NCBI GenBank assembly: GCA_964016885.1
Contig: OZ024744.1
Location: forward strand, 17,050,001-17,114,000
DNA: 64,000 bases
Direction of reading: 5' to 3'
From: Eledone cirrhosa
Lineage: Eukaryota
Position numbers and translations under genes: made by a program. Below the pieces are notes generated by a model. It ran no database searches. It was not told the DNA's origin and saw nothing but the letters and a program-made list of their open reading frames with translations. Of the stretch, positions 25,689 to 62,362 are shown piece by piece (position 1 is the stretch's first letter; every line of letters begins with the position of its first letter).

Positions 25689-27735
25689 CTAATGTATTGG
25701 TACTCGATGGGGCCCACCCACAGCCCCGGCGGACAGAATGGAGAAGGCGTTTCCCCGGAGGATGGCAAGGGAGACGCGCTGGAAAAGCCACTCCAACTCG
25801 CGGGGCTCACACCTGCGGCTGGCCAGCTCAGCGCCTATGGTGGTGAGTATGGAGGTAGCTCTGGGGCCAAGGACACCAGAAGTTTCCACTTCCAGGGGAA
25901 CGACCGCAAACCTGTCGGAGAGCGACCGGTATTTGAGGAGTTTGGCCCCCTCAGCCCGACGTGCAGCAGAACCTGGGTCAGTCGCAGACTGCACCAGGTT
26001 GCGGCTGCAGAAAGTGTCGGTGCAAGTGGCATCCCAGACGAGGGGTTTACCACCGCGGAACGGGGAGATGGTCAGGCCATCTGGCCTTTTGCCGCCCCAC
26101 CCGTTCGAGCTGGGAAGGGAAGCCTGCAGCGTCCAAGCCATGCTTAATGACCTCGTTGAGGGAAGCATGGCGGGGAATGCGGACGGCACTGTGGCGACAG
26201 GAAAGCGGGTGGAGGCCGAAAGAGTCCACGGTGGAACCGCAGCGACATTGGTGTGGCTGGCAGATCCGGAGGTCGAGACTCAGAGAAACGCTGATTCGCA
26301 GGCTATGGTTGTCTAGCTGCGCGCCAGTAGAGAAGGAGGGCAGAGCATGGAGCCAGGTACTACTGTGGGGTTTGGAGGCCGCACGAAAACAAGCAAGGCG
26401 GTGCTGGTTGAGCTGGCGCGTGAGCCTGTCTGAGGCCAGACTGCACTGGGTGGCATCCCAAGTGCGTTGGGGGGGGACTTGACGTCAACAGGGGAAGAAG
26501 GAGGAGGGACGTCTACTGGGCTAAGTCCCAGCCGGTCCCACGTCTCACAGGCGATATCACGTTCTCTGAAAACAGAGGGTTCTGTTGTGTTTTGAAGAAC
26601 CGTGCTGGGTGTAGTATGGAGCGCTGCGGAGTGTATAGAGGAGCTTCGGCATGGCGAAGCAGTTCCTCAGCAGAAAGAGAGCTGGATGGCGGTCAATCAA
26701 GCCCAGTCGGCTCGTGAGAGTCTGGAGCTGTTGAAGCCTCGATCTGATGGTAGAGCGGATGGCCGGCTGGTGGATCGGTGACCCGAGGATGAGGACATCT
26801 TCTTTGGAGTTCACCTGAAACTGGCGGAGAATGGACCGCACGTCCAAGACGGAGGCTGCAAAGATCGCAGCATCGAGGCTGACATTCACCACCTCCGACT
26901 TAGCCGAGTTGACCTGGAGGCCGATTCCCGCTAGGGCAGGAATCACCGATTGAAGGTCTTGGCAGACCATCCGTACGGGCCCCGCCCAACGTAGCATCAT
27001 TCAGATACCAAACGTTGAGAGGGGCCGAGATATTCCGGGCGATGTTGTCAATACCAAGGGCGAACAGGAGGGGTCCCAAAGGGTCGCCCTGTTGGACCCC
27101 AGTAGCCGAGTGTATGACCGTATCAGCAGCTAGGAGCATGCTCGGGGCTCCATATGACAGGTAGGCCAGCGGGTAGGCAGAGGGGGCTCGGCTGAGGCAG
27201 GCCTCGAGCAGATGATCCCGGCGTAAAGAGTTAAAGGCATTCCTCATGTCACGCTTGACAATGAGGTGCCTGAAGTCCCTGGATGCCGGTACCGATGGGC
27301 AGCTGTGGAAGAACTGCCTGATTGCATCAGCGGCGCCCTCACAGCCACCGGACACGCCGACACCCAGTTGCACCGGACTAAACTCCTCACCCAGTTCGTG
27401 TGTGACGGACTTGCAGATGACCTTGCCCACAGCAATGAGGCGTATGCCACCCTCTTTCTTCCTGAGAGCGGTGAGGCTGGTCGAAAAAAAGAGGCCTCGG
27501 GCGTAAGGGTCGAGGTCACCATGAATGAGCCTATTGGTGAGCGCCACAATTGCACTCAGAAGGCGGCGCCCAACCTCAGCGGAGAGGGAGGATGTCAACT
27601 CCTTGAGGTGGTCTTGTCGGAGACCATCAAGACCTCCGCAGCTGCTAGCTTGGAAGGACCTGATGGCGGACATGATATCTGCATCAGTAGCCACAAGGAG
27701 CAAGTGGGGGTCGGGTGGGGGTATGGGTCTGAGAT
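25689..27735 (-). mobile_element. CRE-clade RLE LINE, 5'-truncated, frameshifted
   Basis: RT: GVQQGDPLGPLLFAL, WYLNDATL (26900..27703). RLE: GKRPDGLTISPFRGGKPLVWDATCTDT, PLEVETSG (25689..26189). Confidence 0.9.
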
Positions 27736-28385
27736 CCTGTGTCAGTGTTGAACAAAAAGGTGACGTGGTTGCCTTAACACCGTACGGCTAAAATCAGGAT
27801 GTCCGTTTGTTTACAAACAGACAAAGCGGGCGTTATAATAAACGTCCGCTAAACTGATACGTACATATATATATGTGTACCTGTATGTATATATATATAT
27901 ATATATATATATATATATATATATATATATATATATATATATATATATATATATGCATGCTACTGTACGTCTGTATACATATATGTATGTACGTATACAT
28001 AATACTTACATTTAAGTAAGTGCCGTACTAAGAGTGAGAAATGAAATTTCGTTTCATTTAATTACAACTTATCGTTTTCGGTACGCCTGGCCAACTGAAC
28101 TCACTCGATATGCAAATTAGGCTGCTCAGCCGTTAATTTTCATAAGGAAAGTATATACTTTCGAACGTTCAACCATCTGGCAGAAGGGTATACGGTGCAG
28201 ATTATAGCTAAGAAGCTTGAAACTAGTACATCGTTCCTGTGTCAGTGTTGAACAAAAAGGTGACGTGGTTGCCTTAACACCGTACGGCATAAATCCTGCT
28301 GTCCGTTTGTTTACAAACGGACAAAGCGGGCGTTATAATAAACGTCCGCTAAACTGATACGTACATATATATATGTGTACCGGTA
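27735..28385 (+). repeat. Hammerhead-containing tandem repeat (retrozyme-like), array 1
   Basis: 500-bp period (CCTGTGTCAGTG at 27736 and 28236); hammerhead at 28192-28234 with mutated core. Confidence 0.8.
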
Positions 28386-28494
28386 TATATATATATATAT
28401 ATATATATATATATATATATATGTATATATATATATATATATATATATATATATATATATATATATATATATATATATATATATATATATATAT

Positions 28495-29315
28495 GGAGAA
28501 AAAATTTACGAAATGAAAATGCGGGTATATAGAATTTATTAGGTAACAATTGTTTCTATAGTGTATGAGTTACCTATACCTCGCTATTTGAATAATACAC
28601 AAATATTATCAAAAACCGAAAATACACTGTAAGCCAACACACCATGTCATCAGACCTTTGTATTAGAATGATATGAAAATATTTTATACACTAGATAAAA
28701 GATAAAGAAGGAGGTAGGTAGATAAGGGGAAGAGGGAAGTGAGTAAGGTGGAGGGAGTCTTAGGGTTTAAGACTGTCAGACTAGTAGAGATTGTGAAGAG
28801 AGAATGTTTTGGCAGCAGTTAGCTTAATGAGGCGTGCTAAGGTTGGCTGGGAAGTAGATACTTCTAGTGGTGTTGTTCGGACAAAATTTAGTTAGAGGGG
28901 TCAAAGTGGTACAATGTCACAGACAAGTTATTAGGGCTATTATAGTAGCATGTTATTTCTAAAGGGGTCCAGAAAAACAGTGTTTAGTACTATTATTATA
29001 GAAAGCCATATCTAGTGTATAAACATATAAGACAGAAATTTGCAAACGTTGGTGTAAAAAGGTAACATTATATGCATTTAAAAAAAGAAAAAGTCGTTTT
29101 CAAACGATGGTTACAGTATAGAGAACGTTCAATTTTGCTGTTCAAAAGTTTGTTTACCGACGTTAAAATACAGTATATCTCTAAATTGCATAACTTGCAG
29201 AATCGATGATTTTGCTGATATGCAGGCGCAGCTGCAATAATTTGCCAATCAAGGGAGAACGCTTGATTGTTCCTCCGAAGCTGCCAGGCTTTATCGGCGA
29301 GGGTTGTTACGGAGC
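28495..29315 (-). mobile_element. Naiad-like PLE 3' fragment (GIY-YIG C-terminus)
   Basis: LDWQII...CKLCNLEIYCIL...LLNSKIE..CNH in ORF 29068..29391; remnant GAAACAATTGT near 28550. Confidence 0.7.
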
Positions 29316-60139: not shown

Positions 60140-60460
60140 CTGTAGGGCCTACGTAGGGTTAACCGCTAATAAATTCAAGCAGAGTCGTTACAGGCATACC
60201 CATTCTTTTCTTAACCCTTTAAGAAGGAATATGACGTCACTTTCAGCTTCTATCTGGAGTCTAAAAGGCAACTACACCCAATATAGTTTAACGGAAATAA
60301 AAAAAACCATGTGACCTCTGCGCTGCTGAAGCCCTGGAAATACTCTACGCCAATGACCACGTCTTAAACGAAAAATCTGAGGCAATTTCGGCTTGTAAAC
60401 ATAAATTGCAAAAAGCTTTCCTGTATTACACCCCGACATTTTACCCTAACGGATAGTACG
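60140..60460 (+). mobile_element. Naiad-like GIY-YIG fragment
   Basis: YVGLTANKFK..Y.H..SF, TSLSASIWSLK, CDLCAAE, LNEKSE...CKH. Confidence 0.65.
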
Positions 60461-61542
60461 AACTATACGCGGATAATTTACGTCTCGATGTGGTAACTAA
60501 GTATATGTTATGTTTATACCATTACTTATTTATATAGGTAAGTATATAATACCTGTATGTTTTGTGAAGGTACGTATACTTTCGTTTTGTGAAGGTACGT
60601 ATACTTTCTCGTACGTATATTTGCTTGTATTTTTTATATGCGTATATATTAAATTATATATACTGGTACATGTGTATATGGTTATGTGTATACGTGAGTT
60701 TTGCGTTTGTGTGTGTATGCGGGTTTGCATATATGTAGGGTGTGTGTGTATATGTGTACTTTCTGTTTTGGTTGACGTATTTTAGCGAACATGTGTTTTT
60801 ACATGTAGGTATGTGTGTGCGTGCGTTATATACGTATTTATGTGTGTATATTTATTTACGTTTATATAATTATATGTATACGCGCACACACACACACACA
60901 CACACGTATATATATATTTTTTATATATGTTTTATGTGTATTTCGTGTATACGTTCGTATAGGTGCGGGTAGAGGCGTTGCGTGGGTTTTGTATGTGTGC
61001 GCGTGTTTTTTGTGTACGTGTCTGTATTTGCATACCCATGGCGGGTGTTTTCGCGTATGCGTGTTTATGTACGTATATTGATGCGTGCATGTATATATTT
61101 AATTATTGTTGATTTCAATAACTTCTGTATTTATTTACATTATTCTTAACTCTGAAGCCGGGAATCATTCGGTTTCAGGAATAGAATATTAGTCTATGAC
61201 TTCGTTTATACCAAAAACGTGGTTTGTCTTTCCGTGTAATTGTTCTAAACGCTTCACATAACGACGTATTATCTTCGCTTTTTTCCGTTCATTGCAAGGG
61301 AACGTCTTCACGAACCAAGGCATCGTCTTCCTGTTTTCCTTCGGTTGCAACTTTTTTCGAAATATTTACTTCTGCGTTCACCGATTGATTTTTTTAGTTT
61401 CAGAAGATCCCGTTATAGGTGAAAGCAGCGATTATTTGCTTAAACTTTAATATGTTATTTTATATATATATATATATATATATATATATATATATATATA
61501 TATATATATATAGATAGATAGATAGATAGATAGATAGATATA

Positions 61543-62362
61543 TCAGCCGTTAATATGCATAAGGAAAGTATATACTTTCGGACGTTCAACTATCTGGCAG
61601 GAAGGTATACGTTGCTGACGATAGCTAACAAGCTTGAAACTAGTACAGCGTTCCTTTGTCAGTGTTGAACAAACAAGCAATGGTGGTTGCTAGACACTAC
61701 GGCTTAATACGGGATGTTTGTTTACAAACACACCGAGCATTATAATAAATGTTCGGTGAATCCATACGTACATATATATGTGTGCATGTATGTATATATA
61801 TATACATACTAATGTACGTCTGTATACATATATGTATGTACGTGTACATACTTATATTTAAGTAACAGCCGTACTAAGGGTGGGAAGTGAAATTTCGTTT
61901 CATTTTTTCCGTTTATTGTTTTCGGTGCACCCGGCCGATTAACCCACTCGATATGCAAATTGGGCTACTCAGCCGTTAATATGCATAAGGAAAGTATATA
62001 CTTTCAACAATCTGGCAGGAAGGTATACGTTGCTGACGATAGCTAATAAGCTTAAAACTACTACAGCGTTCCTTTGTCAAACAGTTTCCTTTGTCAAACA
62101 GCGTTCCTTTGTCAAACAAGCAACGGTGGTTGCTAGACACTACGGTTTAATACGGGATGTTTGTTTACAAACACACCGAGCATTATAATAAATCTTTGGT
62201 GAATCCATACGTACATACATATATGTGTGCATGTATGTATATATATATACATACTACTGTACGTCTGTATACAAATATGTATGTACGTATACATACTTAT
62301 ATTTAAGTAACAGCCGTACTAAGAGTGAGAAATGAAATTTCGTTTCATTTTTTTCCGTTTAT
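61543..62362 (+). repeat. Retrozyme-like repeat, array 4 (2 units, 418-bp period)
   Basis: Hammerheads at 61609-61651 (intact) and 62027-62069 (decayed). Confidence 0.8.
61609..61651 (+). ncRNA. Type I hammerhead, intact core
   Basis: acgttg-CTGACGA-tagctaacaagctt-GAAAC-ta-GTA-cagcgt. Confidence 0.8.

Follow-up and report, generated by a model that had tools for sequence, protein, structure and literature searches.

A dispersed hammerhead repeat of Eledone cirrhosa: a likely non-LTR retrozyme, probably copied by Penelope-like enzymes

The window analysed here, a stretch of 64,000 nucleotides from Eledone cirrhosa (contig OZ024744.1), contains short arrays of a non-coding repeat unit of 420-500 bases bearing hammerhead motifs, and the locus raises the question of what class of element the unit belongs to and how it was copied. 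The preferred answer, drawn from DNA sequence and held with a probability of roughly 0.7, is that this high-copy repeat is a non-LTR retrozyme, the self-cleaved and probably circular RNA of which would be copied in trans by the reverse transcriptase (RT)/endonuclease of a (TA)n-targeting Penelope-like element (PLE).

The unit in the window and in the genome

An initial annotation had placed the non-coding unit at 27735-28385, 29340-29966, 55385-56690 and 61543-62362, where it was indeed found. The positions of these four arrays hold but not their separateness; the first two are probably one insertion, and 55385-56690 is a composite with an inverted arm. An arm of the long subfamily c1 (27735..28494, plus strand) begins 7 nt past the predicted cut and stops inside the internal TA tract of the unit, in which a 5'-truncated PLE of family N3 is nested (28495..29317, minus strand; GIY-YIG C-terminus and 3' end), foreign to the unit. 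The probable rest of the same insertion (29318..29967, plus strand) has the long 3' end, then TA. The units of the two arrays, which this PLE fragment probably divides, have four near-private columns in common, and one further locus is equally close to the unit of the first array. The RT frame at 26900-27787 belongs to another element, its stop-to-stop frame entering the unit by 18 codons.

The composite consists of two minus-strand arms and one inverted plus-strand arm, i.e., an arm at 55392..55771 (minus strand, short 3' end), the left arm of a head-to-head pair at 55935..56455 (minus strand, short 3' end) and the inverted right arm at 56461..56674 (plus strand, short 3' end), which begins 4 nt past the predicted cut. 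The 544-nt spacing in this array arose because the tail was replaced by a TA/CA tract. The pair is the sole short+short pair of the sample. An autonomous-type PLE of the candidate driver family N1 (56686..58960, minus strand), with RT, Cys-rich linker, GIY-YIG and its own pLTR, adjoins the unit tail-to-tail with a TA tract between and has a hammerhead unlike the unit's near 56945. The last arm (61543..62362, plus strand), of the short subfamily c2, carries two hammerheads and has the long 3' end, followed by TA.

Across the genome, 24,318 exact matches to the core of the unit were counted, against 0 for the control, which gives the copy number that had been called for, and a second motif had 30,100 matches. 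Full-length units (n = 51) were 418-567 nt long; the unit is non-coding, its longest ATG frame being 54 aa, and GC contents were 0.35 and 0.38 (below 50%). Many palindromes and TA tracts make up its sequence. Anatomy was studied at about 75 loci among tens of thousands of copies. Most arms have a single ribozyme (70/86; maximum seven), and the median divergence between units was 0.7% inside one locus versus 5.2% across loci. The arrays are short and dispersed with polar ends, rather than long, localised and without polar ends as in a satellite, and no LTR-like layout was seen in the unit.

No autonomous parent was found by tblastn and flank comparison at 60 ten-kb loci, the unit was the pLTR in none of 30 GIY-YIG loci out of the 150 matches listed, and 38 unpaired 5' flanks had neither a common junction sequence nor a same-sense ORF adjoining the unit. 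Comparison with N1, N2 and the 30 GIY-YIG loci, which represent part of the genome, revealed no autonomous PLE homologous to the unit at its 3' end. At the loci examined no RT/GIY-YIG ORF adjoined the unit in the sense orientation; the possibility that most copies are pLTRs on a PLE ORF does not apply to the sampled ones. The unit is likely a dispersed non-autonomous retroelement of the animal non-LTR retrozyme class, and neither a satellite nor the pLTR of an adjoining ORF. Its first description as non-autonomous and retrozyme-like is supported; the label 'cephalopod-type' is unsupported, no such class having turned up in the searches. At the long end, contigs from the public runs X1 and X5 (organism A) had loose ends in TA, as did those of X5 at the short end, possibly the assembly's own material; because organisms B and C yielded just 3 and 7 contigs, presence of the unit in other species is not claimed.

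The hammerhead motif

The six type I hammerheads reported previously, three of them intact, were borne out. The intact ones lie at 29583-29625 (plus strand, predicted cut after 29619), 55606-55648 (minus strand, after 55612) and 61609-61651 (plus strand, after 61645). The core is mutated at 28192-28234 (plus strand), core and palindrome are mutated at 62027-62069 (plus strand), and the copy in the left arm of the head-to-head pair (56150-56192, minus strand) is degenerate, with the core kept and the ACTAGT palindrome and base of stem II lost. The reading of the motif as a type I hammerhead with a palindromic stem III (ACTAGT) is supported, and all three stem I variants (acggtg/catcgt, acgatg/catcgt and acgttg/cagcgt) are present.

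The core descriptor had four matches in the window, whereas 50 mononucleotide shuffles averaged 0.04. With a helix I of 6 bp, a helix II of 4 bp and a helix III with palindromic loop, the geometry is that of the canonical hammerhead (6 bp, 4 bp, and 1-2 bp plus palindromic loop; PMC4209133) and not that of the minimal PLE type, which has a helix II of 7-8 bp and a short helix I. An Rfam scan of the window at E<=1 returned no hammerhead, only sub-threshold microRNA-type matches on microsatellite hairpins; the identification rests on motif and covariation. Mismatches amounted to 4/495 in the hammerhead core versus 741/14,003 elsewhere, and the long-range helices of the monomer fold had double-sided (covarying) changes, though neither covariation nor core counts are independent events because the copies are related; strand-specific G.U-type changes were also present. 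The core of the ribozyme has stayed conserved in the face of lineage drift. The predicted circular folds had z values of -13.7 and -8.4 (-6.0 and -5.5 once the TA arms were left out) and pair the two ends of the monomer together. A U.U mismatch stands at the start of stem II, part of the core is held in an alternative pairing in the predicted fold, and the ribozyme looks weak.

Insertion ends and candidate drivers

Of 109 arms, 87 ended at either of two fixed 3' positions about 60 nt apart (45 long, 42 short), with 15 other ends and 7 in the TA tract. TA-rich DNA followed 72 of the 87 fixed ends, versus a background of 5.9%; the figure for ends was 70/79 in a sample picked regardless of ribozyme. 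The 5' ends were scattered. Head-to-head pairs were long+short in 21 of the 22 classifiable cases (P = 1e-5), or in 19/20 when duplicated pairs were counted once (P = 4e-5), and both arms belonged to the same subfamily in 30/30. Among the 25 pairs measured, however, 13 had an arm that was closer to some other locus than to its partner, which speaks against the preferred reading. The unit thus has a tail between two fixed 3' ends, 5' truncation, an inverted copy and a microsatellite target; tail, inversion and TA bias are PLE features on record (PMC8557442, PMC11167929). Since fixed 3' ends, scattered 5' ends and long+short pairs are PLE hallmarks, the unit was likely copied by a PLE enzyme, and the mobilisation by PLEs proposed in the initial annotation gains support from the target site and from the geometry of the ends. 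The ribozyme cut site is no hard stop, as 70 of 76 passes ran through it. The 5' ends at -3..+16 of the cut (6/76 versus 38/1323, P = 0.03, in a bin picked post hoc) suggest some linear cleaved templates.

In the unit the tail was 61 and 59 nt long; N1 and N2 each had one of 60 nt, and N3 one of 115 nt. N1 and N2 are TA-targeting families with long+short head-to-head pairs in 12/15, and N1 frames free of stops comprise 1,217 aa. Both have their own pLTRs, to which no homology of the unit was found. Based on the shared tail of about 60 nt, as against that of N3, N1/N2 are the likely drivers; given trans-mobilisation by a PLE, the balance tips slightly in their favour. A presumed third relative of these two families turned out to be N2. 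Unit/PLE joints exactly at ribozyme cut sites were absent genome-wide for three patterns. Direct joints in 145 loci comprised two on the same strand (L116 with N1, L204 with N2) and none on opposite strands; the two were rejected as proof of a driver, target deletion accounting for them equally well. A genome-wide chimera search in one orientation gave a single match (L235), which matches the neighbouring genomic copy without a difference, hence was probably copied from DNA, and was likewise rejected.

Mechanism, alternatives and known systems

The RNA of the unit is likely self-cleaving, probably circular, and likely copied into TA microsatellites by a Penelope-like enzyme. Tandem transcripts would cleave at GUA|C and, given a stem III of a single pair with a palindromic tetraloop, would do so as dimers; the extended stem may then hold the monomer ends together for ligation to a circle. 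The PLE enzyme would nick each strand of a TA tract and prime cDNA at two internal sites, one per strand, the RT would read on past the cut site and complete at least one round to give tandem units, and the two cDNAs would be joined at their truncated ends. A bolder proposal, offered tentatively and rather unlikely in full, is a SINE-like circular-RNA parasite that is unrelated to its driver in sequence and structurally mimics the N1/N2 priming sites 60 nt apart, with the enzyme priming both nicked strands on one circle and rolling round it. If true, tail length (about 60 nt in the present family, about 30 nt in a second, 310-nt family) would be a fingerprint pairing each retrozyme with its RT, and the strict one-long-one-short rule would reflect PLE dimer geometry.

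Some observations weigh against the preferred reading. Cleavage was not required for PLE insertion in vitro (Frangieh et al. 2024) and was reported in 1/9 Xenopus dimers (Li, Clavereau, Pollet 2026, bioRxiv 10.64898/2026.07.22.740005), and passage through the cut site is explained by uncleaved multimers no less well than by circles. The PLE could instead copy a linear multimeric transcript that stays uncleaved, with the hammerhead doing no more than trim 5' flanks or being incidental and with no circle as template. The passes through the cut site, the mild (post hoc) excess of 5' ends near it and a ribozyme that looks weak in the predicted fold agree with this, as does unprocessed RNA being the dominant PAc substrate in vitro (PMC11167929). 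However, the arrays are near-homogeneous internally yet 5% apart, as expected from rereading one monomer, the predicted fold closes both monomer ends, and one ribozyme per arm in 70/86 makes long multimeric sources rare; a linear template appears improbable.

Still less probable is a pLTR or deletion derivative of an unsampled, perhaps rare or extinct autonomous PLE, with the copies as truncated insertions. Such an origin draws on the report that 24/57 retrozyme families of Xenopus have homology to known TEs, in nearly every case to the termini of PLEs (Li et al., bioRxiv 10.64898/2026.07.22.740005), and on the small sample of loci and GIY-YIG matches described above, but conflicts with the 38 unpaired 5' flanks without common junction or abutting same-sense ORF, the 0/30 GIY-YIG loci, the separate pLTRs of N1/N2 and a ribozyme geometry that is canonical and not PLE-minimal. 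A DNA-level satellite or palindrome-forming repeat spread by recombination, the hammerhead being a relic, would suit the abundant palindromes and TA tracts, and unequal crossing-over could achieve the array homogeneity; it is largely refuted by end polarity (short dispersed arrays, fixed 3' and scattered 5' ends, long+short pairs), is opposed also by the strand-specific G.U-type changes and core conservation, and is very improbable.

The retrozyme class and the hypothesis of PLE mobilisation are already published, and the insertion footprints of this family are new. Like animal non-LTR retrozymes (Cervera and de la Pena 2020, PMC7229834), the family is built of AT-rich, non-coding units, a few hundred bases long and in tandem, with a self-paired predicted circle and one type I hammerhead each, as especially in axolotl HHR_Amex1/Amex2 and newt satellite 2. 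A one-pair stem III with palindromic tetraloop is shared with HHR_Amex1 and U.U at the stem II base with HHR_Amex2, whereas the present unit joins both weakening features in one ribozyme. It differs further in its internal TA tract; the main text of that study is without the words 'inverted', 'tail' and 'microsatellite', whereas the present analysis records fixed ends, a tail, inversions and insertion into TA. The conclusion that PLEs mobilise such elements agrees with that for Xenopus non-LTR retrozymes as PLE derivatives (bioRxiv 10.64898/2026.07.22.740005), but the evidence there is co-occurrence and pLTR homology, and here insertion anatomy, the pLTRs of the candidate drivers having shown no homology to the unit. 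EN+ PLEs (Craig et al. 2021, PMC8557442; Frangieh et al. 2024, PMC11167929), including non-autonomous Chlamys such as MRC1, are alike in 5' truncation, tandems, inverted truncated copy, one-end tail, microsatellite targets and two internal RT start sites; in contrast, the unit has no ORF, a tail of about 60 nt versus 30-40, and, at the loci compared, none of the 3' homology to an autonomous family that non-autonomous Chlamys generally show. The present family bears on two questions left by PMC7229834 and the Xenopus study, which enzyme spreads animal retrozymes and whether its template is a circle. It offers mechanistic footprints from DNA alone, candidate drivers with intact ORFs, and two mapped, presumed priming sites within reach of the published in vitro PLE assay. 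As the retrozyme class is known, what the family adds is a system for testing and a means of pairing retrozymes with RTs.

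Insertion ends of the unit

Re-examination of the window bore out the tandem unit and the positions assigned to it in the initial annotation, and a motif check likewise gave six hammerhead-like motifs, three of them intact. The unit ribozyme has a 6-bp stem I prolonged beyond a small bulge, a core of CUGANGA + GAAA, a 4-bp stem II whose basal pair is a U.U mismatch, and a stem III consisting of a single A-U pair around a palindromic tetraloop, with GUA|C as the cut site predicted from the sequence. These features agree with what PMC4209133 sets out as canonical geometry for metazoan type I hammerheads. 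The unit hammerhead received no score in an Rfam scan.

In the 3.0-Gb genome, 12,539 + 11,779 sites match a 33-nt core pattern exactly (none match its reversed control) and 30,100 sites match a second motif of the unit, each count being a lower bound for unit copies. The main sample comprised 55 ten-kb loci spanning the first 100 core matches on one contig, to which five hand-picked loci were added; the second-motif sample comprised 20 eight-kb loci from that motif's list, with three listed places left out. The 51 full units formed two subfamilies, c1 (~490 nt) and c2 (~422 nt), plus one outlier. Median divergence was 0.7% inside one locus (73 pairs) and 5.2% across loci within the same subfamily (528 pairs).

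Low-identity short microsatellite matches were removed before arms of the unit were counted. The 3' ends of 109 arms (55 loci and the window) fell at two fixed positions, long (45) and short (42), within the TA tract (7) or elsewhere (15), and the tail between the fixed positions measured 61 nt in c1 and 59 nt in c2. TA-rich DNA lay directly beyond 72 of these 87 fixed ends, against a background of 5.9%, and a fixed 3' end was also present in 70 of 79 arms of the second-motif sample. The 5' ends were scattered. Among 30 head-to-head pairs of arms, both ends could be classified in 22, and 21 of these combined a long with a short end (P 1e-5; 19/20 and P 4e-5 when two duplicated pairs count once), the sole exception being the pair in the window. 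Both arms belonged to the same subfamily in all 30 pairs. In the 25 measurable pairs, the median distance of an arm to its partner was 2.9% vs 6.5% to other loci, and in only 12 was no other locus closer than the partner.

For Penelope-like elements (PLEs), Craig et al. (PMC8557442) describe truncation at the 5' end, tandem copies, a truncated copy in inverted orientation, a tail that frequently marks just one end and a microsatellite bias. In Frangieh et al. (PMC11167929), the PLE tail is delimited by two internal sites at which the RT starts, and both DNA strands are nicked and extended upon insertion.

Candidate driver PLEs and the RNA template

No same-sense ORF adjoined the unit in the window or the sampled loci. 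Two PLE families in the window, N1 (57200-58960) and its 53%-identical sister N2 (11875-14003), each carry their own pLTR and ribozyme, and blastn found no homology between the unit and either of them. Both have TA targets and 60-nt tails, and their head-to-head pairs were long+short in 12 of 15 cases. N1 is abundant (42,970 candidates; five of 75 scored had stop-free 1,217-aa frames). N1 and N2 share the Cys-rich linker described for Neptune/Nematis PLEs, and by their RT motifs they may be 'Nematis-like'. A third TA-targeting PLE, N3 (28495-29317, minus strand), has a 115-nt tail and a CxCX5C linker as in the Hydra PLE description; its copies are 99% identical and it is a young family. N1 was also found inserted head to head inside the unit's internal TA tract (L179/L203/L204), and therefore the tract itself is a PLE target. 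Another PLE, with RT and GIY-YIG (16016-20647; ORF 17445-19229), is flanked by inverted repeats and adjoins at its left end an (AG)n tract, not TA.

Direct evidence that N1 or N2 drives the unit is weak. Two direct same-strand unit/PLE joints were found, for which target deletion could be an alternative cause, and a genome-wide pattern search gave none at ribozyme cut sites. The only genome-wide unit/PLE chimera (L235:1452-1691) holds 87 nt identical to the neighbouring genomic copy. There, a head-to-head N2 insertion has captured these 87 nt of adjacent genomic DNA between its arms, which suggests that nearby DNA served as template at the 5' junction of the PLE.

The cut site was crossed by 70 of 76 passes in the second-motif sample; six stopped at -3..+16 of the cut, vs 38/1323 for the remaining bins (post hoc P 0.03). 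Such read-through could arise on a circle or on a multimer that was not cleaved, or through end-to-end jumping. The homogeneous arrays, together with a modelled helix closing the monomer ends, would favour the rereading of one monomer.

Conservation, predicted fold and other hammerhead families

In loci with the second motif, non-consensus cells numbered 4/495 at 11 core positions vs 741/14,003 elsewhere, no core column was polymorphic, and 64 of 66 covered ribozymes in the second-motif sample had an intact core, these counts being inflated by variants common to lineages. The predicted fold of a 37-unit alignment contains long-range helices, one of which would close both ends of the cut-to-cut monomer, and folding z-scores without the TA arms were -6.0 and -5.5. 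With the core edited to the hammerhead form, 97.7% of cells pair, double-sided changes occur in 101 cells (shuffles 39.9; 0/500 reach it) and 12 pairs show such change (shuffles 9.4; 14/500). Covariation thus supports the modelled fold, short of proof because a single alignment of related rows gave both the structure and the counts.

A second retrozyme family, with a 310-nt unit, occurs at L090:1547-3996 and at L114, L184 and L195. Its hammerhead has U.U at the stem II base and the palindrome ACGCGT; there are 9,305 exact core matches, arrays of at least 28 units, TA targets, long+short ends in 4/4 head-to-head pairs and a tail of ~30 nt. Tail length is a family trait here, among N1, N2, N3, the unit and this second retrozyme. 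A further hammerhead family in the window has inverted copies at 46052(-), 46564(+), 47144(-) and 49637(+); its stem II is long, and a palindrome of TA repeats forms its stem III. The fetched loci (~1 Mb) contain many other, distinct hammerhead families in which stem III is a palindrome. The window also holds fragments of PIF1 helicase, probably a Helitron (50890-52871, minus strand), and three tandem copies of an ~800-826-nt unit with (TCT)n tracts (40546-42856).

Comparison with known retrozymes

A literature search, with subscription journals mostly outside its reach, found no report of a cephalopod retrozyme class or of retrozyme insertion anatomy, and supplements may show such ends; the squid genome paper only counts hammerheads (235). 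The unit is real and its class already known: Cervera & de la Pena 2020 (PMC7229834) defined the animal non-LTR retrozymes, put forward PLEs as drivers and demonstrated that coral, mussel and axolotl contain the circles, and Li et al. 2026 (bioRxiv 10.64898/2026.07.22.740005) made a homology-based case for a PLE origin and obtained cleavage in 1/9 dimers. With its RNA-level steps as predictions, the mechanism by which the unit spreads is better constrained here than in the publications consulted.
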